Assembly (NCBI RefSeq): GCF_965363235.1
Contig: NC_134841.1
Span: 74,717,723 to 74,781,722, forward strand
Origin: Mytilus galloprovincialis
Taxonomy: Eukaryota
Direction of reading: 5' to 3'
DNA: 64,000 nt
The position numbers were made by a program, and so were the translations under genes. Below, in pieces: positions 14,016 to 60,800 of the stretch (the stretch's first letter is position 1; the number at the start of each line of letters is the position of its first letter). The notes beneath the pieces were generated by a model. It made no database searches. It saw only the letters and a program-made list of their open reading frames with translations, and was not told the origin of the DNA.

Positions 14016-14045
14016 ATAAATTACCACTAATATTTCTATTTTTAG

Positions 14046-18369: not shown

Positions 18370-18798
18370 ATAAATAAAAAACAAGATAAAAAGAATTGTA
18401 CTGTACTTTTATTTTTCATTTAGGTATAAATACTTTTTTTCTTCAATTCTTTAAAAACTGCATTTTTCAAATATAACAGTCTATTATTTATGGCACTGAA
18501 TTATGTAAGCACAAATATAGATGTTGTTATGACACAAGTGCAGGCAATATTTTTATAAAGATATAAAGATCATTTGAAATCAATGAATGCTTAATTTCAC
18601 TGAAACCACTTTATCCTGTCACCTGACAGTGTCCAGCTGGACTTATTCAGGGATTTCAACTGCCATCTTGTTACTTCATTTGTGTCACACATTATCAAAA
18701 GAAATCTCATTGAAAACCATCTAACAGAATTCCTTCAAACTTGCCCAAATTCACTACATGACATAAATTGTAATGAATACCAATTTTTTTTTTTAAAG

Positions 18799-18947
18799 AT
18801 GCAAACAAATCCTGGGCAGATATGGTAGAAACAGCAGAGGCTGCTAAGAAGGCTAAGAAATCAAAACCTCCAGGTGTAAAGATGGATGATGTTCTGGTAG
18901 CTACTTGTGGAGATGATGGTACAGTCAGGGTCTGGCAACCATTGCAG
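18799..18947 (+). CDS. WD40 gene exon: (D)ANKSWADMVETAEAAKKAKKSKPPGVKMDDVLVATCGDDGTVRVWQPLQ
   Basis: Acceptor tttttaaag ends 18798, donor CAG|gtaaga at 18948. TCGDDGTVRVW is a WD motif. Confidence 0.8.
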
Positions 18948-19499
18948 GTAAGATAACATGCAATTCGTGTGTTATTGTCGATTTTAAAGATGTTAAGGTT
19001 TCATTAAGCAGAGTTGGTTCCTTATTCAGAATATCAATTGAGATTTGTATCAAAGGTTTATGTCAGGAATATCTTGAATGAGTTGAAAATTGGTGTGGAT
19101 CATCTATTTTTATGGCCACACAACAAAGTTTTCAAGGCAATACAGTTTTACCCTTATCTGTCATTCAGTCATTCTGCAACAAACAGTTATACAGACTTTT
19201 TTCTAAAGGACATCACATATTAAGCTGATTTTTTGGTATGTAAGTATGCTATGATAAGTTACAGATGGAGTTCTGCTCTGCTGATTTTTTCCAAAATTAT
19301 GGGCTTTTGAATTTGAAAATTTCCACTCCCTAAAATCAGCTTCAAGTTTTTATGTCAGCAGGGCCATATGTGTTGTTCAGACATGTTACTTCTCATGGTT
19401 TTGCTTGCGTTTTATATTATCCACAGCTTAGATCAAGTGTTTATTATTTATAATAGCTTGTAACTGTTTGTCTGTACATCTGTATTGTTTGTTTTTTAG

Positions 19500-19711
19500 G
19501 CAAATGAGCTTGCCAGTATGTCAGGACACGATGACAGAGTACTCAGTGTATCATCTGACGCACAGGGAAAATTGTGTACAAGCAGTCTTGACAAGTCTGT
19601 CCGTCTGTGGGCTCCTGAGTTGTCAACAACACCATCAGATGCAGGGCATAATGGTTCAGTTACATTTGTCAGTTGTATAGACAATGGAGCAGGTTTATTG
19701 ACTGGAAGCAG
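19500..19711 (+). CDS. WD40 gene exon: ANELASMSGHDDRVLSVSSDAQGKLCTSSLDKSVRLWAPELSTTPSDAGHNGSVTFVSCIDNGAGLLTGS(R)
   Basis: Acceptor tgttttttag ends 19499, donor AG|gtatga at 19712. GH..RVLSV...SSLDKSVRLW blade. Ends in phase 2. Confidence 0.85.
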
Positions 19712-19837
19712 GTATGAGATCAGCATAGATTGAAATAGAAAAAATAGAATAAATACACAAGACTACAATCCAATAAAATACTTGACTTATTTTTCTCCCA
19801 TTGTTGAGTGCATTATAATACCAGTTGTTTTTATACG

Positions 19838-21792
19838 ACCGCAAAATTTGAAAAATTTTTCGTCGTATATTGCTATCACGTTGGCGTCGTCGTCGTCCGA
19901 ATACTTTTAGTTTTCGCACTCTAACTTTAGTAAAAGTGAATGGAAATCTATGAAATTTTAACACAAGGTTTATGACCACAAAAGGAAGGTTGGTATTGAT
20001 TTTGGGAGTTTTGGTCCCAACATTTTAGGAATTAGGGGCCAAAAAGGGCCCAAATAAGCATTTTCTTGGTTTTCGCACTGTAACTTTGGTTTAAGTTAAT
20101 AGAAATCTATGAAATTTTGACACAAGGTTTATGACCACAAAAGAACGGTTGGGATTGATTTTGGGAGTTTTGGTTTCAACAGTTTAGGAATTAGGGGCCA
20201 AAAAAGGGCCCAAATAAGCATTATTCTTGGTTTTCGCACAATAACTTTAGTTTAAGTAAATAGAAATCAATGAAATTTAAACACAATGTTAATGACTACA
20301 AAAGGAAGGTTGGTATTGATTTTGGGAGTTTAGGTCCCAACAGTTTAGGAATTAGGGGCCAAAAAGGGACCCAAATAAGCATTTTTCTTGGTTTTCGCAC
20401 CATAACGTTAGTATAAGTAAATATAAATCTATGAAATTTAAACACAAGGTTTATGACCATAAAAGGAAGGTTGGTATTGATTTTGGGAGTTTTGGTCCCA
20501 ACAGAATAAGGGGCCCAAAGGGTCCAAAATTAAACTTTGTTTGATTTCATCAAAATTGAATAATTGGGGTTCTTTGATATGCCGAATCTAACTGTCATGA
20601 CTGTGTATGTAGATTCTTAACTTTTGGTCCCGTTTTCAAATTGGTCTACATTAAGGTCCAAAGGGTCCAAAATTAAACTTAGTTTGATTTTGACAAAAAA
20701 TGAATCAGTTAGGTTCTTTGATATGCTGAATCTAAAAATGTACTTAGATTCTTGATTATTGGCCCAGTTTTCAAGTTGGTCCAAATCGGGGTCCAAAATT
20801 AAACTTCGTTTGATTTCATCAAAAATTGAATAAATGGGGTTCTTTGATATACCAAATCTAACTGTGTATGTAGATTCTTCATTTTTGGTCCTGTTTTCAA
20901 ATTGGTCTACACTAAAGTCCAAAGGGTCCAAAATTAAACTTAGTCTGATTTTAACAAAAATTGAAATCTTGGGGTTCTTTGATATGCTGAATCCAAAAAT
21001 GTACTTAGATTTTTTATTATGAGCCTAGTTTTCAAGTTGGTCCAAATCAGGATCTAAAATTATTATATTAAGTATTGTGCAATAGCAAGTCTTTTCAATT
21101 GCACAGTATTGCGCAATGGCAAGAAATATCTAATTGCACAATATTGTGAAATAGCAATTTTTTTTTTTAATTAGAGTTATCTTTCTTTGTCCAGAATAGT
21201 AAGCAAGAAATATCTAATTGCAAAATATTGTGCAATAGCAAGATTTTTTTTTAATTGGAGTTATCTTTCTTTGTCCAGAATCAACTTAAATCTTTGTTAT
21301 ATACAATGTATATTCACTTTTTACTACCAACTGATAAATTAAAATTATCTTTACCATTCAGTGATAACAAGCAGTTTTTTTTACATCTTAATATTTTATG
21401 ATGTATTTAAATGAGTAGTTATTGTTGCAAACTCCATTAGAAATTTTAATTGAGATTAGTTTTGGAATAAGGGAAAGGGGGATGTGATTAAAAAAATTGG
21501 GTTCAATTTTTCTCATTTGAAATTTCATAAATATAAAAGAAAATTTCTTCAAACATTTTTTTGAGAGGATTAATATTCAACAGCATAGTGAATTGCTCTA
21601 AGAGAAAACAAAAATTTTAAGTTCATTAGAACACATTCATTCTGTGTCAGAAACCTATGCTGTGTCAACTATTTAATCACAATCCAAATTTAGAGCTGAA
21701 TCCAGCTTGAATGTTGTGTCCATACTTGCCCCAACCGTTCAGGGTTCAACCTCTGCGGTCGTATAAAGCTACGCCCTGCGGAGCATCTGGTT
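19838..21792 (+). mobile_element. Composite non-autonomous element, copy 4 (about 1.96 kb, most diverged)
   Basis: Same 5' terminus (tttttatacgaccgcaaaatttgaaaaatttttcgtcgtatattgctatcacg then (GTC)n) and 3' terminus (...cagggttcaacctctgcggtcgtataaagctacgccctgcggagcatctggtt). Confidence 0.8.
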
Positions 21793-26690: not shown

Positions 26691-27660
26691 GGCAATCAAA
26701 TGTTGTCCGTGCATTTGCTCATGAACCGTTCAACCAAAGCTTTTAAAATTTTAATATGTTGTTACTGACAACTAAATGAAGGTCAAGTTCAATAATGGCG
26801 ATTTTGACTTTTACCGTTCAGGAGTTATGGTTCTTGAAAGATTGAAAAATAAAGTTTCCAGTCATGTCCCTGCATTTACGCATGAACTGTTCTACCAAAG
26901 CTTCCCAAATTTTAATATGTTGTTACTGATGACAAAATAAAGGTCAAGTTCAATAATGACGATTTTGACTTTTACCGTTCAGGAGTTATGGTTCTTGAAA
27001 GATTGAAAAATGGAGTTTCCAGTCGTGTCCGTGCATTTACGCATGAACTGTTCTACCAAAGCTTCCCAAATTTTAATATGTTGTTACTGATGACAAAATG
27101 GAGGTCAAGTTCAATAATGACGATTTTGACTTTTACCGTTCAGGAGTTATGGTTCTTGAAAGATTGAAAAATGGAGTTTCCAGTCGTGTCCGTGCATTTA
27201 CACATGAACTGTTCTACCAAAGCTTCCCAAATTTCATTATGTTGTTACTGATGACAAAATAGAGGTCAAGTTTATTAAAGACGATTTTGACTTTTACCGT
27301 TTAGGAGTTATGGTTCTTGAAAGATTGAAAAATGGTGTTTCCAGTCGTGTCCGTGCATTTTCTCATGAACCATTCAACCAAAGCTTTTGAAATTTTTATA
27401 TGTTGTTACTGATGGCAAAATAGAGGTCAAGTTCAATAATGACTATTTTGACTTTTACCGTTCAGGAGTTATGGTTCTTGAAAAATTGTAAAATGGTGTT
27501 TCCATTCACGTTGTTGCATTTACTCATGAACCATTCAATCTAAGCTTTTCAAATTTTAATATGTTGATACTGATGACAAAATGGAGGTCAAATTTGATAT
27601 TGACGATTTTCACTTTCACCATTCATCAGTAATGGTTCTTGTGATATTGCCAGGATACAA
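26690..27660 (+). repeat. Satellite-like tandem array, 6 copies of a 161-bp unit
   Basis: The ttaccgttcaggagttatggttcttgaaagattgaaaaat landmark recurs at 26811, 26972, 27133, 27294 and 27455, with a degenerate copy near 27612. Confidence 0.9.
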
Positions 27661-40739: not shown

Positions 40740-40960
40740 CTTTTTTTAACTTCAATAGACGATGTCTTTGATTGCCGAAATCAATATTTAGAAAACTTTC
40801 AAATTATTGTGCATATGTCTGAAGTAATTTTTTTGTTTGTTCGGTTACCATCTAAAAACACCGCAAAGGACATCCTTTGTGCACAAAGGAGCACTAAGGG
40901 CCCCAAAGAAGTTTGTTAAGAGCACAAAGGACCTGAAATTCCCTTTAAAGCATATAAATA
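40740..40960. repeat. Partial head-to-tail-inverted copy of the 877-bp repeat unit
   Basis: 40740-40850 matches 41940-42045 (ttaacttcaatagacgatgtctttgattgccgaaatcaatatttagaaaactttcaaattattgtgcatatgtctgaagt). 40850-40960 is the reverse complement of 42470-42560 (contains the palindrome cctttgtgcacaaagg). Confidence 0.75.
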
Positions 40961-41939
40961 GTATTATTCCTGAAGCAAAATGTAAAAATAAATCAAACAA
41001 TTTCAATAAAAATTGCGATTTTTATAATGTACGATTTGGTGTTATCACCTGTAGCGGTTCGGAACGGACTTTATATCCGGGCTATGTTCATGTATACATG
41101 TGAATTTTTAAATAGTGATTATATAATGCAAATGAAAGAAAAAGTGAATTATTATTCTTAATATTTTGTTGTTGTAATGTTTTTTTAAGATAAGAGACTT
41201 TACCAAAACTACCAAAATTATGTAAGAATACCGATGTTTCGCTGTTTTTTTTTTTTGTCTCGTATGTCATCATCAGCTTGTTTCCTTATGTATGGTAATA
41301 TGTATTGCCATGACGAAAACGTTTCCAAAGGCACAAAGGGAACGGTATGGCAATAATTCCAAAAGTAGGAAGTTAGTTTGAATATATAGTATTCATATAT
41401 TTCAATAGACACTTTGTTTAATCAAACTTAATTCTGCAAAAACACAAAATATGTACCGAAATTTTCTTACATTGCGATTCTTAGTTGATTTAACAAAAAC
41501 GTTTCTAAGACACAAACTGGGGAACAGTATAGCATTTATTTTTAAGGTAGGGAATTGGTTTGAATTTTTCAATCCGTTTTTCAGAAAATTTATTCTGCAC
41601 AATACAAAGTATGCACCGAAATTTTTTAACTGCCGAATTATATATATTTAGATAATCTATATAAAGCAATCCCTTGTATAAAATAAGAAAAAGTTTTCAA
41701 TTTCCATAGCAATGCTGATGAAAATAAAATATGATAATTAGAAATAAAATGCTCTGATAGTAAAAATAGTTTTAAACAAACTTGAAAGAAAATATACCTG
41801 ATAGATAGACTTGACGTGTAGTTGTATTGAGATTAAATAATGTAGAATTTATATATAGTTTTGAATGTTTCAATGAAGAACTCTCTGATTTTTTATTCTT
41901 TTATAAAATTTTAAGTAAATGGTTTATATTTCTCCTTTT

Positions 41940-43700
41940 TTTAACTTCAATAGACGATGTCTTTGATTGCCGAAATCAATATTTAGAAAACTTTCAAATT
42001 ATTGTGCATATGTCTGAAGTTATTTTTTTGTTTGTTCTTAATATATTAATTAAAAACATATTGTTATTATTTTCTAAATGTCATTGTTTTAAAAGACTGT
42101 CTTTTATGTAACTAACTGTAAAGAATTTATAACAGTTTGTTTTACCCAAGAGCAATCAAGTCCTCATTAAATATTACCTATTTACTCAGTGTCGAGTTCA
42201 AATCTTGACAAACATTGTTTGCTTTATTTTTTTCGTTTTAATGTCCAGTCTGTATTTATATGTTTGTGTTTTCTCAATATTTTTCAATACATGAATGTAT
42301 AACTTAGTAAAAATAATCTTATAGAAAAGGACCGTAATCTTATGCACATCCGTACCGATTACAGACACGGTTTCGTAAATCTTCAACTAATACGAATTTA
42401 ACTCAAGTATTTAAAAAAAAATCATTTTTTCCCGTCAGAAATCCCTTTTATCCCATTTTATAAAAAAATTTCAAGTCCTTTGTGCTCTTATCAAACCTCT
42501 TTGTGGTCCTTAGTGCTCCTTTGTGCACAAAGGAGGTCCTTTGCGGTGTATTTAGAGGCCGTACCATCATAATGGTATATGCTCTTTGTACTCTGTAATC
42601 ATGATACTAGTTTTATCATTTCTTTTGTTCGGTTTATGTAGAATAGTATAATTGTATTGTTTTTGTTACTTTATCGGCTTTATGTCATGCTTGCACTAGG
42701 AAAAAAGATGACATGCTCAGATTTCAAATATTTTTGTTATTTGACATTTTTTTCCTGGAAATATAATTGTCTGTACTGTACTGCTGTTAAAATATGTGAA
42801 TATAATTCTTTTCGTATTGATCGAATCGGATGCAACGATGTCTTTGATTGCCGAAATCAATATTTAGAAAACTTTCAAATTATTGTGCATATGTCTGAAG
42901 TTATTTTTTTGTTTGTTCTTAATATATTAATTAAAAACATATTGTTATTATTTTCTAAATGTCATTGTTTTAAAAGACTGTCTTTTATGTAACTAACTGT
43001 AAAGAATTTATAACGGTTTGTTTTTCCCAAGAGCAATCAAGTCCTCATTAAATATTACCTATTAACTGTCGAGTTCAAATCTTGACAAACATTGTTTGCT
43101 TTATTTTTTTCGTTTTAATGTCCAGTCTGTATTTATATGTTTGTGTTTTCTCAATATTTTTCAATACATGAATGTATAACGTAGTAAAAATAATCTTATA
43201 GAAAAGGACCGTAATCTTATGCACATCCGTACCGATTACAGACACGGTTTCGTAAATCTTCAACTAATACGAATTTAACTCAAGTATTTTAAAAAAAATC
43301 ATTTTTTTCCCGTCAGAAATCCCTTTTATCCCATTTTATAAAAAAATTCAGGTCCTTTGTACTCTTATCAAACTTCTTTGTGGTCCTTAGTGCTCCTTTG
43401 TGCACAAAGGAGGTCCTTTGCGGTGTATTAGAGGCCGTACCATCATAATGGTATATGCTCTTTGTACTCTGTAATCATGATACTAGTTTTATCATTTCTT
43501 TTGTTCGGTTTATGTAGAATAGTATAATTGTATTGTTTTTGTCACTTTATCGGCTTTATGTCATGCTTGCACTAGGAAAAAAGATGACATGCTCAGATTT
43601 CAAATATTTTTGTTATTTGACATTTTTTTCCTGGAAATATAATTGTCTGTACTGTACTGCTGTTAAAATATGTGAATATAATTCTTTTCGTATTGATCGA
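41940..43700 (+). repeat. Tandem duplication, two copies of an about 877-bp unit
   Basis: 41940-42816 aligns near-identically with 42817-43700. Duplicated ORF-track entries 42198..42386 and 43075..43263 are identical, as are 41827..42111 and 42657..42992 over their shared part. Confidence 0.9.
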
Positions 43701-44881
43701 ATCGGATGCAACAGTTGGACAAGTTTCTACTTTTTAAATTTGAATTTCACACGCAACTATTACATGTATAAGTTTGCCATATGTTGATGTTCGTCATGAT
43801 TTTTCATATTTAATGTCGTCATCACTTTATACCATCACAAATATACATATATTATTTTCTTTTAAAATGCGACATCTCGAGTGCGACATTCACCATATAT
43901 GGGTTGTTTACTCGTATTGTATTCTGCTTCAATTAACATCTCGATTAGAGAAAAGTCACTCTACCCGTGTCTGGTTATTAACTTCTGAAATATCACCTAG
44001 CGGCGATTCGCGTATATTCCATCCGCATTTACTTCTACTTAATATACACAACATAAAAATACCGACTTAATCCAGTCAAAATACGATAAACACAATAATC
44101 AAAATGTAATTACACGCAACTACTGACTGTGTGCAAGTAATATTGCGTTTAATATATTATAATAAAGTGAGTTTTTTTGCGATAATGTTTATAATCAAGT
44201 AGTTTTAACAGTAAAAAAACACACTAATTTGAGAAATTCGTTCGAACTTCACAAATCTTTTTGTCAGCATTTCTGATATTCTTCCTAAGTCATAATAGAC
44301 ATAATAATCTTCCATCATTACCGAACTGAACAAAAAAATATCACGACGGGTGCCGTATACGGTGCAGGAAATGCTCACCCTTCCGGAGCACATGATTTCA
44401 CTCCCGGTTTTTAGTGGAGTACGTGTTGTTTCTTATTATTATTTAAAACTGTTGATGTAAATGTCCTTTGGTTTTTCGAGTCTTTGTTTACTCCCTGGTT
44501 TTGATTGTTATAGTCTCTCTAAATTCGACACGGCCCAACCACTTTCGTCCACTACACTTCCCCCTTTTTTCACTCCCATACAACTCATCATTAGCAAGTT
44601 GCTGACACAGATGTAATGATTGTTTTCAGTTGGTCACGAGAAAGGTGTGACAAAAAGATGTGTTTCATAAACAAACTTAGGACGGACGACCTCATGGAAT
44701 GACAGTTAATGCAATATAGCCCTACTTTTACGGAGGGTATAATCATTTTGTTTCTTGTAAACACCACAAAGCTTTATGTTCGATATGTTCTCGGTTTTGG
44801 TTTATATAATTCCTTCTCGGCGTTCAATTTTCCAACAAATTTCTATGTCAAAATCTGAGGCAACATTGACCGTTCCTACAT

Positions 44882-46442
44882 CAGGGATGGGGTAATCGTA
44901 ATCTGTAATCGTAATCGATTGTAATTGATTACATTTTTTCAAGTAATCGACAGTAATCTGTAATCGAAGACATTTTCGATTACATGTAATCGTAATATAA
45001 TCGATTACAGCAAAAAATTGGATGTAATCATCGATTACTTTTCGATTACATTTCGATTACTTTAGTAAAATAGCTTGATGAAAATTTACCTATTTCAGAG
45101 GAAAATATGTATGTTATCACTTTGTAGTACAGATAAAATATCATGCATCAACAATACTTGAGAGTTAAGCAACTGCCTTATTTCTTTCTATTGTCTCAAG
45201 CTGCATTATGAGCAACCAGATCCCCTACCTTTATATCTAGCTTTTGAAACAAATGAATGTATGTGCTTGTCAATAATTCAAGAGCTTTAATATTAAAACA
45301 AGAAAATAGATTTGAAATAATAAAATAGATCTTAAATAAGAAATGTGTCTGTCTTTCGTTAAGTTCTATACTACAGTTTTTAAAAGTAGTAAGCTTATTT
45401 GTATTAAATTTCCTGAAAACATCATTTTCAATCAGAGTTGAAATTAAAGCTTAGAATAGATAAGCAGTTGATTTTGTAAATGTTATGATATACATGTGTA
45501 TAAATTAAATTAAAAGAGAACACAAAATCTTTTTAACAATGAACCAATGGCAATGCATAGCAATTATTTTTAGAAATAGATACAGGTATCCCTTTGACAC
45601 TATAAATATATTTTGTATATATATAATTTGATTGAAGAACTTAACAAATTTTAACAACATTCTTGCCTTTACTAATGAGATGATCAAAGTCTTCTAATCA
45701 ATAACAAAGATACTTTGTTTTTATTTCAATTATCTTATGTTTAATTAAGAAGGAAATTTACAATATTTAGCCCCAGGTTAGAAATTGTACTCCAGTGGCA
45801 GTTAAATAATCTGTAATTAGGGTGGTTATCCAAACAAAAGGTTTAAATCATGCATGTCATAAAAATAAATTTTGATCTTAAAAATTAGCTGAACTAATTA
45901 TTCTACTTTTTTTATATTTCCTTAAACATTATAAATAACTATGCTTAAATAATTTTTTTTAAAGAGTAAAAACAAAAAAGCTAACCTAAGTAAGTAAGAA
46001 AGCTAATTTGTTGAAAAACAATTAGTTATGAATAAGTGATTATTGCAATGCGATGACATCTTTTATTTATGTTGAAAGTCAAAATTTCAAGATTTTTTAA
46101 ATATTTCTAATCTTCATCAAGAGATTTGATTTAAAAAAAACCAGCTATTAACTTATAATTGAGAAATAATGCTTTGAATGATGCATTTGGTAAAGACCTT
46201 AATTGCCACTAAACAAATGTTGAGCAATATAATTGTGTTTACTCATATTATTTTTTGTTGAAATGTTGAAGTATGTAATTGACAGTAATCGAAAAGTAAT
46301 GTAATTACTTTTGATAAAATAATTGATTGTAATCGATTACATACTTAAATTTGAGTAATCGATTATTAATCGATTGCACAAAAATCCCTCATGTAATCGA
46401 TTATTAATCGATTACATTTATCAGTAATCGTGCCCATCCCTG
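44882..46442. mobile_element. Non-autonomous hAT-superfamily DNA transposon (about 1561 bp) with an 8-bp target-site duplication
   Basis: Terminal inverted repeats CAGGGATGGGGTAATCG... (left) and ...CGTGCCCATCCCTG (right, reverse complement CAGGGATGGGCACG). These resemble Ac-type hAT termini (CAGGGATGAAA). A perfect 8-bp direct repeat TCCTACAT sits at 44874-44881 and 46443-46450. Subterminal clusters of TAATCG/CGATTA motifs lie at 44890-45070 and 46290-46430. There is no long ORF. Confidence 0.85.
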
Positions 46443-47986
46443 TCCTACATGTCATTGTCTCGTTTGAAGTTTTATGTCCAGTCACCGTCCTATTACTTAA
46501 ATGGTTTCGCACTTTTAGATATGTTCTTGCATTTGGTGACCGAATGCTTGACCCATGCACATTTAGTCGCCGAGGACATTTGACAGACAAAAAAAAAAAA
46601 AAAACGTATGAAAACCTTGTACACATGCAGTGGTATAGTTGGTCATAAACTGTTTGAGAGTTGTGTGACCATAAACTGGCCAAATTAAACAGAACTTAGC
46701 CAATGTATTATAATTTGGAGGAAGACGATTAGTATACACCCCTGTCCAGTACCAGCTAAGACATCTAATGATCTATAATGCGCATCAAGTATAGTCTACC
46801 ACCTAATATGTCCCGTCTAAAAGTCTGGTGATAATTAAAGGCAGCAGTAATTTTATAAAACATATCCAATCTCATAAATTCCGTTGATTAAGATTGATAA
46901 AGTTGAACCATTCGTCATCTAACTGACCAACATTTTGTAAGCAATTGGTAATATTAAATTGGTTAATATAAGTATTATAATTCAGATTAGTGGACTTCGC
47001 CCCCTTCACATGCAGGTAACGCCTGCCTCATATACTGAAAAATAAATAGAACACTGACTGACATAAAATTGAGAGTGAAAATCGGGAAAGTGTCAAAGAG
47101 ACAACAACCAGACCAAAGAGCAGAAAACAGCACTAGACCAACAATGGGTTTACAACACAGCGAGAGAAATAAAATGTCAGAAGAAAACATATGGTAGTGA
47201 TATAAAGTTTAAGACTGATCTCATTATCTAAATCTCAGTCCTCCACCTTAATTTTCCATTTTCCGATTGCAATCCTCCGCATTTAGAAATTGGATGATAA
47301 AGAATGGACTCGCAAACATACAACGGAAACCAGAAAAGTACAAATATACAACAAAACAAAACAAAATATGAATAATTTCGCATATTTTCGTCGGTAAATT
47401 TTAAATTACAAGTTTTTAATTATTTTTTAATTGCTGTTAATTCGTATTTGTATTGTTTTAATTGTTTTTTTTTATGTTATGGTTTGAAAAATCTTAACAC
47501 TTGAACCCTTTTTTGGCTCCACCTATTTGATATCTGCCACTCCTTTTGTGCGAGCAGACGGCATCCTTGTATTTTGTTGAAGATGCTTTCATTATTTAAA
47601 CATATTGTTTTTTAAATTACTATAAGCCAAATAATCTCAGATTGAAACTTCCTTACCAATATTTTCCAGTGCTGTCAGAAAAAATCAGCAAAAACTCTAC
47701 GGACAAAAGTATTGTCAACTTTGAACTTTCACCTGCATACGGTAAAATCTCTGACGTCATTGAAATATGTGTGGAGTAACCGCTCCGTTTACGACTAGTA
47801 CATTCATAATCAAAATCATGTTATGAAAACAAGGACCAACACAGTGAGAGACAAATCATTGGAAGTGTTTATAAAACTGTGTAATTTTATTGTTTTAGAT
47901 GTGGATGAAACAACATTTTTAATTCAACTATTGTGATTTTTTATTAGAAGTACGTGACGTATGTCAGCTGTTGACTTTTGAAGGAT

Positions 47987-48137
47987 ATGGGTGAAACAAA
48001 GCCCAAAATTGTGATCATCGGTGGAGGGATCTCTGGGATAGCCTTAGGAGACTATCTCGCTAACAATGGATTCAAAGATTACGTTATACTTGAAGCATCA
48101 AATAGAACAGGCGGTAGAATATACACCGTCAATCTTG
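47987..48137 (+). CDS. Polyamine oxidase (PAOX/SMOX-family FAD amine oxidase) exon 1: MGETKPKIVIIGGGISGIALGDYLANNGFKDYVILEASNRTGGRIYTVNL(G)
   Basis: ATG at 47987; the ORF-track start at 47978 is TTG. The upstream ATG at 47961 hits a stop. Rossmann dinucleotide-binding motif GGGISG...LEAS.R.GGRI. Donor TTG|gtaagt at 48138. Ends in phase 1. Confidence 0.8.
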
Positions 48138-49085: not shown

Positions 49086-51374
49086 GCATATACATACATA
49101 ATGTGGCGGGGGTTAAACATGTTAGCGGGATCCCAACCCTCCCCTAACCTGGGACAGTGGTATAACAGTACAACATAAGAACGAACTATATAAATCAGTT
49201 GAAAAGGGCTTAACTCATCAGATGGACAAAAATACAAGTGGACATGGCCGGGTACTTGTACATCCCAACAACAAAAAGACACTAGTTACAGATCTGAGAT
49301 TTCTCACAGTTAACTGGCAGCTAGTTCAAAGCCACTAACAACTAATAAAAAAAATCATGCATCTAAGACTTATATATATGACTATTAAGCTCATGTGAAT
49401 CCGCCAAACTCAATACTTTATATACATGTACTAACTGACTTTGATTTCATAAAAAAAAATGACTTACATGTACAAGCTGAAAGTTGTTCTGTCTTACAAT
49501 TTCTTTAAATTTCAAAAAGAATTACTGGTCATACTATGTAGGGGTTGTGGTTGTTACAGTGTATTCCTAAAAAAACTGTTCGATTTAGTAATTTATGAAA
49601 TTCAACACAAACTATTCATATAGTCTATGTTCATTCCATTTATGGTCCCTCAAGGGAGTTATATTGACATGTACAAACAATACAGTACAAGATGACCAGT
49701 GAACAAACATGTACTCAGAAGGGCAATAAGTATAATACCAGACCATTTTAAATGTTCAGTACTCTGCTTCGGGGCTCTGTGCAGCAGTGCTACCCTAGGT
49801 GAAGCCAACGTTGGATTGTATAGTACATAGTAATAAAATTGAAAATGGAAATGGGGAATATGTCAAAGACTAAGAGAAAACAACCCGACCACAAAGAGGC
49901 TGAGCAGACAACAGGCGAAAGCTGTAATGTATGCATTTGGATATACATGTATTCACAAAGGATTTAAGTTATTATGCTAAATGTACATGAGATGTGGAGG
50001 ATACACATTGTATTATAATTGTAGCTGAAGACTAGACATTTTTTTAGGTCAAATTGAAGTATTTCAATATTTTTACATGTATATGGCATGCCAAAAGAAA
50101 CACATCATGTACAAAAAATTTACATGTAGAGAAAACTGTATTTTAATACAAAAATGGACAAAATATACATTTCAATATGAATGTTCACTGTTTCTGTTAC
50201 TTGAAAAACAGTTTTCATGATGCACAGTAACCCTCTTGTAGCCAAGATTGTCTACATCTACATGATCTAGATATTTATCATGTTTAATTTACAAACTACT
50301 AAAGACTGAGTGAAGATTATTTGATGGTTTGAAATGCTCTTTGAAATTTCACCATACTAGAATTCAAGATTTGTGCCACATTAGTTTCATCTGGTATTTT
50401 TTAAGCCATATGTACTGAGTATTGCATTTGTAAATGGTAACCTATGTCTTGTCCTTGTTTTTGAACCTATTGAACCAGAAACAGACTAGTACAAGCTATG
50501 CATTGTACCATACACATGTCAGTAGCATACCACAAGACATCATGATGAGATGTCACTACTTTGCACAATGCAGTATCTATTAGTACAATGGAAAAGTGTA
50601 CCCATCATTAAAAAAATGTGACCAACTCAATGTTACATGTATAAATAAGGAAATGCATGTGGTTTGATTGCCAATGTCTATCTGACAGCTGAGTCCAAAT
50701 GAAATGAATATAAAAAGTTATAGGTCAACATATAGCCTTGTAACAAAAATGAGTAAACCCATACTTTTATACATACATAGCTATAGTCGACTGTATAAAA
50801 AGGCCCCAACATGACAAAAAAGTCTGGTAGAAAAATAAGACATTTTCTTAATTGTAACAAGCTTTATAGCTGACTACATGTATGTGGTAAAGGGTATGCA
50901 CAGGGTATGCACTTGTATTCTATACAAAATACTCTTTGGTAACTTAAACTGGATGTCACTGCTTTAGATAGGATCCTGTTGTCATGTTCATAAACATGCA
51001 TGTTTTTTTTTGCACACAAGTTTTTGAAAGTGACCATTCTTGTTAAACTCAATTTATTTACTCATTATATTATTGTACATGTATACTTACATAGTATATA
51101 TATCCATTAAGTCTCCCTTTATTAAACTAGCTGTTACTTATTGTACATTATTGTAAAAACCTCTCATCTGGTTGAATGATTATTATGACTATTTTCACAC
51201 ACTTTCTAAAAATGGCACATTAAAAACTGAACTTATAAAGTTTAAAAACCTAAATATAAATTCTGTACATGTACATGTATATTAAAGCCAAGAAACCGTT
51301 ACCCACTACAAGTAGAAATGATTTTGAAGAAATTAAGAATATAATAAATATTTTTTTTAAATGATATTTTTCAG

Positions 51375-52289
51375 ATGCCGAAGGCCATAAAGCAGAAATG
51401 GGGGCCAATTGGATACATGGCATAGAAAGAAACCCAATTTTTAAAATTGCTGATGACAATAATTTGCTAGAATTGAGACATGGCAATAAAGGTCTTCGTA
51501 ATAAAACATCCTTTAAAATGGAAAATGGAGAGGAAGTAACTGAAAAAATAGTCAATCAAGTAAATTTGAACTATGGGCAACTAATTATGCAAGCAGAGGA
51601 TTTTTATCAAAATGGTATGCCCACAATGGAAGAAAACGATAGTGTTGGGGCATTTCTGGAACGTGAATATGAAGACACTTTGGAACGATATACAAATGGT
51701 GACCGTCATATTAGAGAATTGTTGTTTGATCAGCGAAAAAGGCTAGAGTGTTGTATATCTGGCTGTGATTCATTGTCAGAGGTTTCTTTGAGTGAGTTTG
51801 GAAGTTATGAAGAACTACCAGGTGTTCATTATACAATCCCACCCGGTTTTACTGCAGTTTTAGAAATCCTAAAAAGTAGTATCCCAAAGGAAAATATTTT
51901 ACTCAATCATCCAGTCAAATGTATACGATGGAATAGACAATTTCCAGATCCAGAAAAAAATGTTTATGAATGTTGTGTTGAATGTGAAAACGGTGAAAAA
52001 TTCTATGCAAATCACGTAATATGTACTGTTTCACTAGGTGTTTTAAAAGCTGCATGTGATAGGATGTTTAACCCACCATTGCCTAAAATGAAATTAGATG
52101 CAATAGATGCAGTTGGATTTGGCATTGTAGACAAAGTTATTGTTCAGTTTGATGAACCAGTGACAGAGCCTGAATTGTTCCGTGTAGAACTTGTGTGGGA
52201 CAATGATCTCATTGAAATGAATGATCTGCGACACACATGGTATCGTAAAATATACTCCTTTGAAGTGGTACATGACAATGTTTTAGTTG
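51375..52289 (+). CDS. Polyamine oxidase exon 2 (305 codons): (D)AEGHKAEMGANWIHGIERNPIFKIADDNNLLEL...VVHDNVLV(G)
   Basis: Acceptor atgatatttttcag ends 51374 and completes the exon-1 phase-1 codon. GANWIHG matches the conserved G(A/S)xWIHG motif of PAOX/SMOX/plant PAO. A single long open frame (ORF track 51398..52306). Donor TTG|gtgagt at 52290. Confidence 0.85.
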
Positions 52290-52362
52290 GTGAGTATGAT
52301 AGTTAAAGTGGCATAGGTGCTACATTTGTATCTAGACTGTCTTTTTTCACTTAGATCATATA

Positions 52363-52915
52363 CTGTGAAAGTACTTTTATTCGTGGGGTACCAATTTTCG
52401 TGGTTTTCGTGGATGACTTTATCCTCGAATTTAAGTGTCCAACGAAATAAAAATCAAATTGTTTTTGATCAATGAAAGTCAGATTTCCGGTATTGATATG
52501 CTAGTATGATAAAGTGTTCATTTTATATCCTCATAGTTCTCGTACATATAAGAAATAAAAAAATTATGCTGGTCTTGATTTTGCTCAGAATTATTTGGCA
52601 ATTCATAGCATTTGTTTATGTTACTGTTTTCTTTAGGTGACATGTTAATGGCCTAATTAACACCTTTGATGGTCTTTAATCTGTTGATCACTTTATCATG
52701 GGTTAATTAGTGTTTTCACTACGATTTACACGGGTCAATGTTTACTTTGCAATTTCCTTCAATCTAGACTATTTGTAACCCTCGTTTCTAAAGGCTTCAA
52801 TTTTTCAATTTTTTTTTTTTAGAAAACTAAAATCCACGAATTTAAAAACCCACGAACATGTAAATATTGCTCAAACCACGAAAATTGATACCAACGAATT
52901 AAAGTACTTTCACAG
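52363..52915. mobile_element. Tc1/mariner-like (Stowaway-type) MITE, about 553 bp, in polyamine oxidase intron 2
   Basis: Terminal inverted repeats ctgtgaaagtacttttattcgtggggtaccaattttcgtggttt and aaaccacgaaaattgataccaacgaattaaagtactttcacag (about 45 bp, CAGTG-type). Flanked by TA at 52361-52362 and 52916-52917. Internal ttcgtgg/ccacgaa sub-repeats. Confidence 0.7.
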
Positions 52916-55900
52916 TAAACAATTTAGTAATGAAAATTTTGAAGTTTACAGGGTTCTCACTATACATGTACATGTATCTTTGACACATTCCCCATTTACT
53001 TTTTCAATTTTATAGTACACAAACAAAAAATGTACATAGAAATATTTCATATCATGAGTTGTAAATACACTTTTGGAATTATTAGATATATCCATGAGGG
53101 TGTTATCCCGATTGGCTGTATCTAATATAATTGACACCAAGATATAAAGGTTGATACAAAGATTGATTTTGATACTTAAGTAGATGGATCTTGCAGCAAA
53201 TTCATGGTAAAGCAAGATAAATGCAGGATATCCAATAATATACAACACCTTGGTTTATAATTACCAGAACTTTTTTTACTACTATGAAGTCTTATGTACA
53301 TGAACATATATATATATATTTATATATAGACAATGTAAAATTAGGAGGCCAACATCAATTTGTTTTGGCCAGTTGTATTTACCTTTAATGTTCATGCACA
53401 TGCATACATGTATCTGAGGAAGTGAAGTGTGTTGAACGATTTTTCTTTGTGGAGAGATTTATGTGTAAATATTTCTTTTTCAGATAATATTTATTAAGTA
53501 CTATTATTATCATGATTATTATTTATTTGTTACCATGGTACATTTGTTACAGAACAAAATCAATAGTTCTACAGGTGCTACAAATGTATTTGTACATGTA
53601 CATTGTATATGTATATATATATAGTATGATATAGGCATACAAAAAAAATATTTGTGATTCTACCACCCTAACTCAAGAATTCTGGGCCCTCAAGCGACCT
53701 TTAGTTTACAATTTATACGTAGCAATCAAGAGTAAAGTTGGAGATTGGTGGACTATAACAACTTACAATATCATGATTTAGTATTAATTTTGATAACAAC
53801 CAACCAAACAGGCCAGTGATATTGTTGACTTTTTTCAAAACTACCTCTATCCTTTTTCATTGGGAAAAAATGCATCATTTTCTTCAAATTGGGAAATTTA
53901 AAATAAACCATGAATTTGACTGAAACTTCAATTTACAGACCAATTTTCTCAAGAGTCAAACCCTGCTTTAAAATAAGACCCCATTTTGTCATTTATGATA
54001 CATAAATAGACCCTCAAATGTTCACATATAGTCATTTTACGCAAGAAAATTGTTTAAATGAGTGTTTTTCAGTTTGTATTCATGCACAATTATTACTGAG
54101 ACTGCACTGTTTGGGAAAAAAGTTGTCTTTTTGGGAATAATTTTAAGCCGTTTTTTTTTCCAAATTGGGATTCTTCTCTAGGGGAAAAAGCCTTTATTCT
54201 CCACTAATTCAAGGCAAACAATATCACTAGTACTGCTGGCCCTAATTATTTGTCATTTTTTTAACACAATATTTTAATAAAGTAAAACTTTTGAAACCAG
54301 ATAGTGTAATTGTCTATGTACAGCACTAAATGATTTATGTGTTCTTTTGTTACATACATGTATGTATAACTTTGGCAAGTGTAAATTATTGTAGTTCTAG
54401 CATACTACAATGTAGTACTGTACATGGTCTTCACCCTTGTAATAATGACACATGATTGAATTCAGGGTTTTATGATTTATTACTGTCCAGGTTCAACTGG
54501 TACTTTGATATATCATTATCAGATATCATTCATTTGATTTTCATTCATTGTATACATCCGTCAATAATTACAAAGCCCATCTCGGCCAGGTTTCTGACAA
54601 TTTCAAAGCTGGCTTCCAAATTATATAAAAGAGAAAAAAAGAAGGAAAGGTTGATTGCAGAAAATATGTGAAGCAATGACTCAACAGATTATGTTGATCC
54701 TCTCAGACAGCATGCAGTGAAAACGATTAACTTTTAAGGTGAAGGGATGGTTAGATATGTAAATGTAATACATGTGGAAAGAAAACATATTTGTCTCTCA
54801 GGACAGTAACCTGTGATTTGTCCTTGTTTGACATCATGAAAGCTATGCAGTGTAGCATCAATAAAACTTGTATAAAATATACTGTGTATACTCTCACTCA
54901 GTAAATTTATCTACCTATAATACAATGTAATAGCTACTATCTACTAGGCTTATCCATATTTTCATTTTGTGAAATTGATATTTTTTGTTGAAGTATTGTG
55001 AATTGATCATGTTGGTTGTTTCAAAATCATAAATTTACATTTTTACTTTACAATTGTGTGTTTCAATTTTAAGGGCATCCCCAGTCTAGAATTCAAAAGG
55101 TAAAGAGTTCATTGGCCGGTCAGTTTTCAGTCAATGGGTTAATTCATGTCTTCTGTATCGATTATAATGAAGATTCAGTGTAGCATTTGCCTTCTTTCAA
55201 TTGCAGCGGTCAATAAACTTTCTGCACAATCCTGACCTTGGTTGATATGAACAGTGATGTTGATCATTTTGTGAAGAGAGAGTTGTTTTCTGTCTTGCCC
55301 AAATGCAGTTAATGATTTTTCTATCCCCAATTTACAACAAGTATTTTTCCACTATTATTTGTTAATTAACTTCATCATGAGACACTGAAGAGAGTTTTGG
55401 AAGCTAAGTTTGCTTGTAGCTATAAGCATGGCCACATGCATCTTATTACAATTTATGTGATAAATCTAATATATATACTGTACTGGTGGTATACATGGTA
55501 TATATGTTGTTTGTAAATTTGACTTCTTTTTCCAAATAATTCTTTTGTCATTTCTAATGTGTTTGCTTTGAATTGAAATTTTCACAATTAAATGGTTGAA
55601 TGTTTACAACTTTTGTTGTGTCAAAAGAACTATGTATGCATGTTTCATTTCACGGTCGGTCGTGATGTCACTACAGTCATACATGTACATGTACCTTAGA
55701 AACAAAATTGATGCATTTGACATCAGACATCGTTGCATCTAGGTCATGGCAAATTTGCAAGCAGATCTAGATATATACAACATTTTGGGATTGCTGTTGT
55801 GTATCTCTTGTCTGTTATGAAAATCTATACCTATGTGCAAGTTCTGCTTTGGCAAAAGAAGGTGTGAATTGATAAAAGTCATAGAACATTACAACTAGTA

Positions 55901-56368: not shown

Positions 56369-57747
56369 TGTCTGTCTTGAAATTGACCTCATTTTCAACG
56401 TTCTTCAATGGTTAATGTACATGTAAATTTTTTGTATGCGAGTCTGTTTCTCAGATACATTTACTATAACTTACTATAAGCAATTATATGGTCACCATAA
56501 TCATAATACAGACTAAAAAATTCTATACAGTGACAGTCTTTATTGTCCCGCAACACATATATTGTTTTCAAATATTTGGCCTGACTCACATTACAAATAT
56601 ATGCTAACTAATATCTGGCAGGTGATCATGGTGATGGGAGACAGATTTGAAAGTACACATGCACTTACATTTATACTTAATAGATGCATTCATCTGCTTT
56701 TAATGAAATACAAAGTATATATTTAATGGTTTTAAAACAAGTTGTATTTTCAGCAGTTGTTCACCAGTACATGCATGTTTCTGTTTGATCTTGCGCATGT
56801 ACATTTTGTAAATTATCATCTTCCTCAGACATCATAGTAAACTGTAAAATATATACATTTCGGGTACACCATCACTACATGTAGTACATGTTCAAATTTA
56901 TCTCTTTATCTTTTTGCTATTAAAAAAGTATGTTTTGTGCTTTTTGGTTTTATTTTAAGAAATGCATGTTTATGTATAACTACAATCATGACAATGTATA
57001 AATAAAAGGAGATAATGAGCAAGGTTAGGCAGCAGTCATATTTGCCTAACATGTTTTATTTTGTTAAAAAATCACTGATTGATAAATATTCCAAACTAAA
57101 ACATCCAGGATATATTGAAAATGCTTCCAAGTTTAGGTTTGGTTTTGTGGTCATATTTTTTCATGCAGCAAGCATTAATAATCTCCTTTTAATTATTAAA
57201 TCACTGGTAGCAGTATAATACATGTATATAATAATAAAACATGTACATGTAGGTTCATTAAAAATTTAAATGGAAGGTTATTTAAGGTAACATGTACATT
57301 TAAAAACACTCTTGTATGAGTGATTTGTTGTGTAACTAACATAATGATGGCTGGGGATTCAAGGTTATAACACTTACAATGTATATATGACCCTGTGTTT
57401 AAGATTAGGGCATACATCAGTCTAATTCTTTAGCAATATGCATAATGCATCTAGCAATATTACAGAGTTAATCACCTACAATCACTAAAAATTCTCTCCA
57501 TGGAGTTATATATGTAACTGAATTAACTTTTGTGTATATATAATACATAGGTACAAAATGTAGTTTTAAATAAAAGCCTACCACGTGCACTCATTTCACA
57601 AAAAGTCTGTTGTAAGTTTTTGTGAAAAGAGCCCCTGTGTTTCAGGATCCCTGTTCAAATTTAAATTTTTGAGGCCATCTTAGACATCAATTAATCTGTT
57701 ATCTGTTTATATTTATACATGTTTCAGGAACTGATATATTTTTTTAG

Positions 57748-57877
57748 GATGGTTAAGTGGTAAAGAAGCACTGTATATGGAGTCATTGACGGAAGAGCAG
57801 ATAGGACAAGACATTGTGGAGGCTCTGAAAAAATTCCTTAGCAAAAAAGACATTCCACAGCCAAGAAAAGTCATCAG
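57748..57877 (+). CDS. Polyamine oxidase exon 3: (G)WLSGKEALYMESLTEEQIGQDIVEALKKFLSKKDIPQPRKVI(R)
   Basis: Acceptor atatatttttttag ends 57747 and completes the phase-1 codon from exon 2. GWLSGKEA...ME.L..E is the conserved PAO segment following the substrate-binding domain. Donor AG|gtagca at 57878. Ends in phase 2; the remaining 3' exons were not found with confidence inside the window. Confidence 0.75.
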
Positions 57878-60800
57878 GTAGCAATATGTTTCAAACAATT
57901 ATTTATGTTAACTTGCACTTTACAAACATTTACATGATCCCATATTACTGTGACCTCTGTTTTTTTTTAATCATGCATAATTTTATTATCATGATTATAT
58001 GTTTATTCAAATTATTGATTAAAGCACTGATTGACATGTCATTTGATTGACATGACAAATACTCCCTCAACCAGAGATTGTATTGACTATAAACATTATC
58101 ATATGGATGGTCATAAGTTTTGATTTCTTTAATTTAAGTGGCGGTACAGGTTGGGGGTTCCAGAGGTTGGATTTTTGTGGGCAATCAATTTTGAATGGGG
58201 ACACATGGTTTGAACCCCCTCCCTTAGCCTTGGTTGAGAACCCCCTTATGAAAATGGTTTTATCCACCCCTGAATTTTGACATCATCTACATGATCTAGA
58301 CTTGTTGTAATCTTTCATAATTTTTTAGTCCTTTCCCATTTGTTCTTATGTTTATATATTTCAGGTATACTTATAAATGGTATGATTGCAAATGAGACAA
58401 CTCTCAGCTACCATAGACTTAGTTGACAACAAAAGGCCACCATATGTCCTTCATAACAATGAACAAAACCAATACCGCATAGTCAGCTCTAAAAGGCCCC
58501 AAATTTGTATATTTGATATCAATTTTAAATTCTACAATCCCTCTCTTTATCTGTCACTAGGGTTGTACGTGACTTGGAACATATACTTTTAATCACGGTT
58601 AAAAGGTCAGATAATACAGTGTGTTGGGTTTTTCTACCTATCTTTTTTGTATCACTCTTTTCCCACACCCCCTTCAATGAATTTTTGTAACATTGTATAA
58701 CCTGTAACAAGTGTTAAACCTGTAGACAGGTAAAAATACTCAGACTTTTGATGTTGTAATGAGATATTTAACAGTTACAAAAGGTATTTCCTGTACAAGC
58801 CTTAAAAATCAGCAGATCAGTAGACAAGCTTGAATGAGATTCATATCCCTGAATCAAGTTTCTCAAATATTCACATATTTTACTCAGGTCTTAGTATTGA
58901 TTGTTGAAAGATTTTTTTCATTTTCAATTGCAAAAAAAAAAGATTAGATGACACAAGATTTAACAAGTGAATCACTAGGAATTAATGATTATTGGGTAAT
59001 AGATTTGTGATTCATGTATATTTTAATCAGATCAGGTTTTAGAATTTGTATGATTCATCTTTTCTTCAAGTGTTGATGAGAGAATTTATTTACCCAAAAG
59101 CATAAATGTACGTCTTTACACAAGCATACATGGTTGTGTTTAAATGTTTTCCAGATATATAGTCAAAGTTTATTAAAATATAAACTGTGGACTTGTTTGC
59201 CTTAGTGAATGATAAATAAATGTAAATACCTTTACAAAGAAGTATTATAATATGAATAAGATATTAAGTATATTTGATAGAGTGCATATGAAACCGCACA
59301 TTATTAAAATTCTGTTGGTTTGTCAAAGTCATCGTAATTAATGCACTCGTTTCGCTCAATGACTTAAAGCATTCGGTTTAAAACAATTTACATCTTACTT
59401 CAATAAGAAACATATAAAAACAAAACAACAATAAACAATGATAAACAACAAACAAACAAAGCAAGAAAAGGAAGACCTAAATTTGTCCTTTAAAAATTAA
59501 AATTAATGATTGTCAATTGGGCAAAAGTGTCAAAATCTATATTGTTCCATAAATAATCAGAAATAATATAACTATAGTATTAATGAATAATAAGATTTGA
59601 TTTTAGGTTTTTTTTTTTGTCATAAGTTTCTAAATACAGCTAAGAAAGAAAAGTTTAGGTTCATATTCTTTATCTTTTTTATTTGTATATACATGTATAT
59701 TGTAACTTTTTGATAATAGACAAAATATGACCAACTAAAAGATAGATATATTTAAATCAATCTCTGACTTAATATACAGCAGGTTTGTTTTATCTTAATG
59801 ATTGAAAACATAATTCATTATAAGCATCATTTGGCTTTCAAAGATCAATAATCCATCATCTTAAAGGCATTATAAGCTGTCAAATTCATTACCAGCAAAT
59901 TGACTAAACTGTAAGGTTGAACAGTTAAAATAAATTATAATGTATATTAAAGCAGAAAAAGACTTAAAAGCCAGGGCAAGGGCAAACAGTGCAATACCCT
60001 CATTGATAGTCAAGGTCGTTAAACACACATGTAGTAATGGTATTCCCAAACCAGGTAGGCCTTACTTTACATTAAATTGTCTATTCTAAGTCAGAAAACT
60101 CTATGGTGGTTATCTCTGTAAATATCTGTGAACCTGGAGCAATTCATATGGACTAACATTATATGTCTGGACCTAAAGCATTTAAAATCTGCCCCATCTG
60201 GACTAATGTTATCCACTTGTCTATTGTTGAATATTGTATAATGACCTTTTGAATTAGATGTCTTATTGCATGGTCATTTAGTCATACTTTACATACATCT
60301 CAGTTCATACATATTAAATCGTAGATATTTCATACATTTAACTTCTCTGGGAGCATATTTCTATGTATAAAGGCAATCTAGATAAAAGACAGAAGACTTG
60401 TAATGTCTTGTAGTTCGTGACAACTAATATTACATTTAAGTGGCTTCTAATGTCCCCATCTTAAGAACTTGGGAAGGCCTTCCTAGACATTCGCCAATTG
60501 CAGCTTGAAGAACATATAATTTTGTATATTCTGGATAGTATGTACTGATTAAACATGTTAAAATGTTTTTTATTGAGTATCATTCTCAAGGCATAATGAC
60601 AAATAATACACCACATTGAATAGAAGGTTTGGTATACATGTACCGAAGGCTATAAATGCATGTTTTTACTAGAGATCTTCAAGGTCACATACTGTAGTTG
60701 CAGCGTACATATTTTTGTGGTAATTTAACAATACGTTAAGTGACTATTATAGCAACACAGTCTATTAGCAGCACAGTATAAGTCTGAGCTTTAGCTGAGT

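Follow-up and report, generated by a model that had tools for sequence, protein, structure and literature searches.

A probable Ds-like member of a bivalve hAT lineage upstream of SMOX in Mytilus galloprovincialis, its insertion alleles and its transposase-encoding relatives

The Ac/Ds elements of maize generate 8-bp duplications at their target sites and carry subterminal regions of about 200 bp that are packed with the CG-containing hexamer AAACGG, which is bound by the transposase. Non-autonomous members of this system are internal-deletion derivatives, and the footprints of excision keep both duplicated copies. Here, we describe an element of similar organization in a 64-kb stretch of DNA from the mussel Mytilus galloprovincialis (hereafter the window, the whole stretch that was analysed; element coordinates are window positions). 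With high confidence, we classify this element as a non-autonomous, Ds-like member of a bivalve lineage of hAT transposons, probably of the Ac family, inserted by cut-and-paste into the 8-bp target TCCTACAT upstream of the spermine oxidase gene SMOX. Eight of the 11 bases of the Ac termini (CAGGGATGAAA) are shared with the window element. Unlike Ac/Ds, the mussel element uses the hexamer TAATCG, often in palindromic form, resides in an animal host, has a partner transposase with an N-terminal BED finger as in the ZBED/Hermes group, and is known here from sequence alone.

Two further systems are relevant for comparison. Hermes, the housefly hAT element, resembles the mussel system in that its transposase aligns with the partner transposase (E ~1e-17) and in that its ends are asymmetric, but it differs in its subterminal repeat (AAGT/AAGC) and in its 17-bp terminal repeats, which start with CAGAGAAC. 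Excision of Hermes leaves the hairpin on the flanking DNA, and short subterminal repeats, a quasi-palindromic pair among them, are bound by its BED domains; about 150–200 bp of each end are required in cis for Ac, Tol2 and Hermes (bioRxiv 10.1101/2022.09.16.508221). The other comparison is with DREF, ZBED1 and BEAF-32, host proteins domesticated from Ac-family hAT and BED proteins, which recognize ATCGAT-type sites. More specifically, the site is TATCGATA for DREF and CGATA for BEAF (PMC7471704), and the mussel repeat TAATCGATTA has the same ATCGAT core, a likeness by analogy. Mytilus transposases are automatically annotated as ZBED1- or ZBED4-like. Unlike these immobile, single-copy host genes, the mussel protein is encoded inside a transposon with terminal repeats and duplications.

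hAT is among the commonest DNA-transposon superfamilies of bivalves (PMC10294476), and a described relative of the window element is a bivalve transposon, hAT_A.kagoshimensis_16 (hAT-Ac), available as a curated consensus in the bivalve transposon library of Martelossi et al., 2023 (BMC Biol, PMC10294476). This consensus has CAGGCATGGGG tips followed by GTAATCG / TAATCGATTA arrays, encodes a BED and hATC transposase, and has the ends CAGGCATGGGGTAATCGTAATCG... and ...GTAATTGTGCCCATGCCTG. Identity to the window element is 88.7% over its left 183 bp (88.5% over the first 180 bp) and 80.6% over its right 157 bp. Unlike the window element, it is autonomous, with a length of 3030 bp and a two-exon open reading frame (ORF) of 609 aa; it comes from a different bivalve order, has C rather than G at tip base 5, and its transposase is about 64% identical to the Mytilus one. 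Another consensus of the same study, hAT_A.kagoshimensis_9 (hAT-Ac; PMC10294476, supplementary file 12, part 13), carries GTAATTG / TAATTAATTA instead of GTAATCG / TAATCGATTA, reflecting either CpG-to-TpG decay or a shifted binding specificity. The supplementary file of PMC10294476 captioned as a LINE library also contains class II consensus sequences.

A close autonomous relative from Anadara is already curated, and Mytilus proteins of this kind are already deposited under generic names ('ZBED4-like', 'HAT C-terminal dimerisation domain-containing' or hypothetical). The full-length Mytilus elements that we identify below, which unlike the window element carry two transposase exons, correspond to no named transposon family in the databases. 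A previous reading of the window from its sequence only (the sequence-only reading) had spoken of an undescribed autonomous partner: the partner type does exist, but it is not wholly undescribed given the published Anadara element and the deposited Mytilus proteins. What is added here is a locus with three alleles, a match in Mytilus between this non-autonomous element and its type of partner, and a defined repeat motif. Taken by itself, the locus is a matter of routine repeat annotation; its value is that of a fully documented example in which both the cis-acting ends and the type of the trans-acting transposase are identified.

Element anatomy and subterminal motifs

The element spans 44882-46442 (1561 bp), and with its duplications it occupies 44874-46450, exactly as the sequence-only reading had placed it. 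Its features are as follows.

44874-44881, unstranded: left copy of the target-site duplication TCCTACAT, 8 bp; single copy in the empty allele (contig L001) and in M. edulis
44882-44892, plus strand: left terminal inverted repeat CAGGGATGGGG, 10 bp perfect plus 1; same as the left terminus of the M. coruscus full-length element (locus L063, at 6254)
44882-45061, plus strand: left subterminal region; 12 TAATCG/CGATTA motifs with the core GTAATCG, beginning at element position 12
45062-46166, unstranded: non-coding AT-rich interior, ~25% G+C, CpG observed/expected 0.11
45128-45280, 45495-45540 and 45696-45838, within the interior: weak collinear remnants of the autonomous element
46167-46442, plus strand: right end, homologous to the autonomous element (80-84% over about 245-275 bp)
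46286-46430: right-end motif array with 11 TAATCG/CGATTA motifs, four of them as TAATCGATTA
46432-46442, minus strand: right terminal inverted repeat GCCCATCCCTG, read inward as CAGGGATGGGC; same as the M. coruscus right terminus ...GTAATCGTGCCCATCCCTG
46443-46450, unstranded: right copy of the target-site duplication TCCTACAT, 8 bp

The 8-mer TCCTACAT occurs twice in forward orientation in the window, and both occurrences bracket the element. The tips form a perfect inverted repeat of 10 bp (CAGGGATGGG) followed by a G/C mismatch at position 11. Both the 8-bp duplication and these short terminal inverted repeats, which begin with 5'-YARNG, are features of hAT transposons. The longest ORF inside the element is 60 aa, in line with its non-autonomous character, and exact look-ups of three window ORFs located inside the element or across its ends matched no record. 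An Rfam search of the element returned no RNA family match, and a self-BLAST of the element against the 64-kb window revealed no further copy.

Both ends are densely occupied by TAATCG/CGATTA hexamers, as the sequence-only reading had noticed. Of the 34 such hexamers in the window, 23 lie inside the element; the 178 bp next to the left tip contain 12 of them and the 157 bp next to the right tip the other 11, while about 0.06 would be expected by chance in 2 x 180 bp. The 7-mer GTAATCG is confined to the element (11 out of 11 occurrences in the window). At both ends the first motif starts at position 12 counted from the tip, yet its absolute orientation does not change from one end to the other, which makes the element asymmetric. 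The motifs hold nearly all CpGs of the element, for which the observed/expected ratio reaches 2.0-2.6 in the subterminal regions, compared to 0.11 in the interior and 0.43 in the window. The previous claim that the hexamer often forms the palindrome GTAATCGATTAC was too strong: there is one exact 12-mer, and the 10-mer TAATCGATTA is present five times.

We propose that GTAATCG/TAATCG is a putative binding site of the BED domain or transposase, a suggestion based on its positional clustering, on the conservation of the arrays across subfamilies, and on the precedents of Hermes and Ac. This proposal defines a testable recognition pair, consisting of the BED finger and the putative GTAATCG / TAATCGATTA sites. 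A literature search of main texts for CAGGGATGGG and TAATCGATTA returned primers and unrelated sequences only.

Alleles at the insertion site

To read the state of the site in other assemblies, contigs containing the same SMOX exon (L001, L036, L043, L044 and L037) were compared at the insertion point, with the following result.

Window, M. galloprovincialis: TCCTACAT-[element]-TCCTACAT; occupied
L001, M. galloprovincialis, ENA assembly ERZ6864376, 98-99% collinear: ...GACCGT-TCCTACAT-GTCATTG...; empty
L036, M. galloprovincialis 'Lola' reference GCA_900618805.1: ...GACCGT-TCCTAC-GA-CCTACAT-GTCATTG...; probable excision footprint
L043 and L044, two M. edulis assemblies: single TCCTACAT, with an unrelated ~1.05-kb replacement beginning 2-3 bp further on; empty
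L037, M. coruscus: flanks of the site not alignable, hence no reading of occupancy; element not seen at the locus

The empty site predicted by the sequence-only reading (...CCGTTCCTACATGTCATTG...) is thus found in M. galloprovincialis itself. Because the 8-mer is present as a single copy in this empty allele, the 8-mer bracketing the element is a true target-site duplication. Furthermore, M. galloprovincialis is polymorphic for the insertion, and comparison with the two M. edulis assemblies, which carry the single TCCTACAT, shows the occupied state to be the derived one; the insertion is therefore young, in agreement with the recent origin that had been proposed. This locus provides direct sequence evidence that cut-and-paste transposons add to the extreme presence/absence variation of mussel genomes.

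Two side observations concern the same site in the other species. The M. edulis replacement (L043 ~7097-8148, L044 ~7270-8318) contains internal inverted repeats GGTAACGGACTTATCG... / ...CGATAAGTCCGTTGCC and represents a different insertion at nearly the same spot. In M. coruscus, the region upstream of SMOX contains a reversed 250-bp fragment (L037 ~7330-7585) that has the tip CATGGATGGGG and shows 74% similarity to the left end of the element. Its position, a few kb away from the insertion site, is not orthologous, and it represents a truncated family member of greater age.

The third M. galloprovincialis allele, found in the Lola assembly, consists of the 15 bp TCCTACGACCTACAT, that is, two near-complete copies of the duplicated 8-mer that are changed only at their junction. 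The junctional GA corresponds to the reverse complement of the initial TC of the right-hand duplication copy, and no remnants of the terminal repeats are present between the duplicated copies. The Lola allele also carries the local haplotype markers of the window, among them a 37-bp segment located 40 bp to the left of the site (44806-44842) that is present in the window and Lola and missing from L001. Small insertions at the junction that are complementary to the flank have been reported for hAT footprints and are ascribed to hairpins at the donor ends (PMC3499496; bioRxiv 10.1101/2022.09.16.508221). Taken together, the 15-bp allele is probably an excision footprint, with the element excised at least once, and such a footprint implies transposase activity within the life of present-day haplotypes.

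Two alternatives to these readings of the locus have to be weighed. The Lola sequence could have arisen as an independent 7-bp microduplication or as an assembly error, in which case the element would have inserted once and not moved since. Two observations count in this direction and thus against excision: TCCTACGACCTACAT is not a simple palindromic-nucleotide product and fits no single simple hairpin-opening event, one T being missing in addition, and it is seen in a single assembly, in a region where small indels such as the 37-bp one are common. Yet an independent event would have had to fall on the exact insertion point, on the same local haplotype as the occupied allele, to yield two near-complete copies of precisely the duplicated 8-mer altered at the junction only, and to reproduce the junctional complementarity reported as a hAT signature (PMC3499496); we regard this alternative as improbable. 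More radically, the whole pattern could be a chance juxtaposition of direct and inverted repeats in AT-rich DNA with no mobile element involved. Simulated windows contain, on average, about 0.075 chance cases in which an 8-bp repeat directly adjoins a perfect inverted repeat of 10 bp or more, and the repeat geometry alone is therefore suggestive rather than decisive. The case for a transposon is made by the motif clustering (23 observed against 0.06 expected) and by evidence external to the window, namely the precise presence/absence polymorphism with a single 8-mer in the empty allele and a second copy (L012, see below) in a different flank, all of which renders mere coincidence practically negligible as an explanation.

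Transposase-encoding relatives and classification

The family is multi-copy; two copies of the element and one fragment were encountered. To look for further copies, metagenome contigs, prokaryotic genomes (596 Gb) and viral contigs were scanned with a pattern consisting of the tip and two hexamers. The metagenome-contig scan returned 29 loci, comprising L012, L027 and 27 apparent chance matches with 2-3 hexamers near a tip, mostly of high G+C. The prokaryotic scan gave 15 chance matches, none with more than three motifs, and the viral-contig scan gave no match to the pattern. L012 is the second copy of the element: over 1097 aligned bp it shows 95.35% identity, the alignment reaches exactly to base 1 of the left terminus, and the surrounding DNA is unrelated. 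Accordingly, as the sequence-only reading had anticipated, other copies with these termini exist, both as L012 and as the full-length M. coruscus and M. galloprovincialis elements described below. L027 (metagenome contig Ga0209452_1005028, ~850-2481) is a different non-autonomous element of ~1.6 kb and of eukaryotic origin. Its ends, CAGGGATGGGCAACTAATCGATTAGCAACTAATCGATTAG... and ...CCCATCACTG (also given as CAGGGATGGGCAACTAATCGATTAG...), share both the tip and the ATCGAT-core palindrome with the mussel element. The 8-mers on either side of L027 (AATTATAC / GTATAATT) do not form a direct repeat but are reverse complements of each other, and L027 adjoins a Tc1/mariner-like element.

Using the hAT_A.kagoshimensis_16 protein as query, homologues were identified in Mytilus and the corresponding loci fetched. 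The search for elements with these termini that encode a hAT transposase, suggested by the sequence-only reading, yielded a full-length M. coruscus element of 3391 bp (L063 6254-9644, CACVKT020006736.1, protein CAC5403295.1) in which both 11-bp termini are the same as in the window element and which is flanked by a perfect 8-bp duplication (CTATGAAG). Its terminal 180 bp (left) and 160 bp (right) are 94.0% and 90.7% identical to those of the window element. It contains an uninterrupted ORF of 615 aa in two exons, with Pfam matches to zf-BED (E = 3.5e-7) and Dimer_Tnp_hAT (E = 4e-18). All PDB matches are to Hermes transposase (6DWW, 2BW3, 4D1Q, 8EDG; E ~1e-17), and the alignment spans two of the catalytic Asp motifs (DLW and TDxxAN), an RWNS-like motif and the C-terminal SERxFS. 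hAT transposases typically combine an RNase-H-like DDE core, which contains an insertion domain, with a hATC dimerisation domain at the C terminus, and many also have a BED finger at the N terminus. In addition, precomputed ZBED1_RNase-like domains are listed for the Mytilus homologues. While the window element itself encodes nothing, a full-length element with identical termini thus encodes a hAT transposase.

A full-length copy is also present in M. galloprovincialis (L064 35005-38346, UYJE01009947.1, part of VDI78192.1); it is 95.3% identical to the M. coruscus element, and its left end is 92.3% identical to the window element. A third full-length element, from M. trossulus (L062 5400-8612), belongs to a sister subfamily resembling hAT_A.kagoshimensis_12. 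It encodes a BED-hAT protein of 610 aa, has CAGGGATGGGG at one end together with GTAATCG motifs, and is flanked by the perfect 8-bp duplication CTTGTGAT. The 90%-identity cluster of the M. trossulus protein P0146 includes the 610-aa M. galloprovincialis protein XP_076088266.1. As a side observation, the ends of a further locus, L061 (Logan DRR846126), are identical to the Anadara hAT_A.kagoshimensis_12 consensus over ~110 bp on the left and ~90 bp on the right; the host of L061 is therefore probably Anadara. The transposases of L061 and M. trossulus L062 are 81% identical, and the conserved host SMOX exon is only 71% identical between Mytilus and an ark shell. These values point to the sister subfamily as a candidate for horizontal transfer between bivalve orders.

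Aligning the window element with the M. coruscus element gives five collinear homology blocks.

Window element 1-202, M. coruscus element 1-201: 91%
Window element 247-399, M. coruscus element 265-424: 67-72%
Window element 614-659, M. coruscus element 1069-1114: 70%
Window element 815-957, M. coruscus element 1161-1301: 71%
Window element 1286-1561, M. coruscus element 3113-3391: 80-84%

Exon 1 (667-801) and exon 2 (~1397-3106) of the M. coruscus element are missing from the window element. Having no transposase ORF, and with ends and residual blocks collinear with the autonomous element, the window element is an old internal-deletion derivative, analogous to Ds. Classification as a miniature inverted-repeat transposable element (MITE) was considered and rejected on size, 1561 bp against the usual limit of about 800 bp. 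MITEs are usually shorter than ~800 bp and occur in high, homogeneous copy number.

Assignment to another superfamily with duplications of about 8 bp (P, Mutator-like, Merlin or Zisupton) draws on the fact that an 8-bp duplication is not specific to hAT. The P-element superfamily is distinguished by a THAP-domain transposase, longer terminal repeats and repeat remnants in footprints. The partner protein here has BED and hATC domains, on which the P, Mutator-like and Merlin superfamilies were rejected; this protein, with its Hermes-like catalytic core, is encoded by full-length elements that share the 11-bp termini and have ends 91-94% identical to those of the window element, the tips fit the hAT pattern YARNG, and the footprint allele is free of repeat remnants, unlike the usual outcome of P-element excision. 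We therefore consider another superfamily highly improbable. Which hAT subfamily mobilized the element is less sharply decided. The sister subfamily ('ZBED4-like', 610 aa), rather than the one with identical termini, would be a source of transposase in M. galloprovincialis itself, where XP_076088266.1 is apparently full-length and the sole closest-subfamily copy seen is degenerate, and the M. trossulus element shares with the window element one terminus, the GTAATCG motifs and an 8-bp duplication. But the identity of the sister ends to the window element reaches only 83% on the left and 74.5% on the right, compared to 92-94% and 91% for the closest subfamily, many of their repeats read GTAATCA rather than GTAATCG, and the degenerate copy is the single M. 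galloprovincialis copy of the closest subfamily that was sampled. On balance, mobilization by the sister subfamily seems rather unlikely.

Several observations nonetheless speak against the classification of the window element as a cut-and-paste member of the probable Ac-family lineage. In the M. coruscus ORF, the conserved RWNS motif has L in place of R. The M. galloprovincialis copy is degenerate: its tips have mutated, Pro replaces a His of the BED finger, and exon 2 is disrupted at its start. No intact transposase of the closest subfamily was found in this species, for which this one copy (L064) was sampled. A comparison of the concatenated six-frame segments of the element with a protein database gave no match among 8000 candidates, an uninformative result. 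Lastly, the window duplication departs at position 2 from the Ac-type target consensus nTnnnnAn (as quoted in bioRxiv 10.1101/2022.09.16.508221), the Buster consensus being nnnTAnnn. Among the four duplications known for the family (TCCTACAT, CTATGAAG, CTTGTGAT and, on the left side only, ATATATAC), T is found at position 2 in three and A at position 7 in all four, while the Buster pattern is found in two; the agreement is thus better with the Ac-type pattern, although four sites are too few to decide. The Buster family, suggested by TA at positions 4-5 of the window duplication, was rejected on the further duplications and on the curated hAT-Ac label.

In the mechanism that we propose, a BED-finger hAT transposase would be supplied in trans by full-length relatives and would recognize the CAGGGATGGG tips together with the GTAATCG / TAATCGATTA subterminal arrays. 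It would then assemble both ends and cut the element out, leaving hairpins on the flanking DNA, and integration would occur with an 8-bp stagger. The window element has lost both exons and kept the ends needed in cis (~200 bp on the left and ~250 bp on the right), and its site segregates as three alleles, namely occupied, never occupied and probable excision footprint.

Comparison of the left ends (L063 6254-6433, L064 35005-35184 and hAT_A.kagoshimensis_16 1-180) shows that about 180 bp are 85-89% identical between the Mytilus and Anadara elements, compared to ~67% of nucleotides and ~64% of amino acids in the transposase coding sequence. The spacers between the GTAATCG motifs are as conserved as the motifs themselves. 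This pattern suggests strong constraint on the whole left array, and such conservation would point to a rigid multi-site assembly of BED domains and DNA. We tentatively hypothesize, as a possibility with less than even support, that the lineage may still be mobile in living M. galloprovincialis and that its cis-acting ends may be under unusually strong constraint. On this view, the three alleles would capture insertion and excision still in progress, with an intact BED-hAT transposase of either the closest or the sister subfamily as the source. The system is a candidate for transposon vectors in molluscs, for which few genetic tools are available; if an active, self-contained hAT with defined ends were confirmed, it would be a candidate transgenesis vector for bivalves.

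The SMOX locus and neighbouring repeats

The ORF at 51398-52306 (302 aa) is an amine-oxidase exon that matches spermine oxidase of M. galloprovincialis (XP_076104235.1 and VDI18548.1) with 100% identity. The SMOX exons were mapped with an mRNA contig, which places exon 1 at 47803-48137 (ATG at 47987), exon 2 at 51374-52290 and exon 3 at ~57738-57878. The element is thus intergenic, 1.36 kb upstream of the 5' end of the known SMOX transcript. An insertion at this distance from a polyamine-oxidase gene raises the possibility of an allele-specific effect on expression. A regex scan of the fetched Mytilus loci for the hATC-like motif SERxFS found none near the SMOX locus.

A second polymorphic DNA transposon is located ~70 bp downstream of SMOX exon 2. 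This 553-bp element (52363-52915) is flanked by a TA duplication (52361-52362 and 52916-52917), has the inverted ends CTGTGAAAGTACTTTTATTCGTGG... and ...CCAACGAATTAAAGTACTTTCACAG, and resembles a miniature element of the Tc1/mariner type. It is missing from all six other M. galloprovincialis contigs, each of which carries a single TA. Further downstream, a stretch of ~420 bp (53815-54235) is not present in L001 and L036.

The window also contains tandem repeats. Composite tandem arrays at 6965-21281 are built from units of 161 bp, 125-135 bp, 35 bp and 155 bp, with a higher-order block repeated four times. Separate satellites of 122 bp and 161 bp are present, and tandem arrays are also listed at 2199-3160 and 26704-27641. 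Units similar to these are found in the M. coruscus locus L037 as well, at 33.8-36 kb. Closer to the element, repeats of ~880 bp occupy 40800-43950, where a palindromic TGTGCACA context mimics the signature of a duplication and an inverted repeat.

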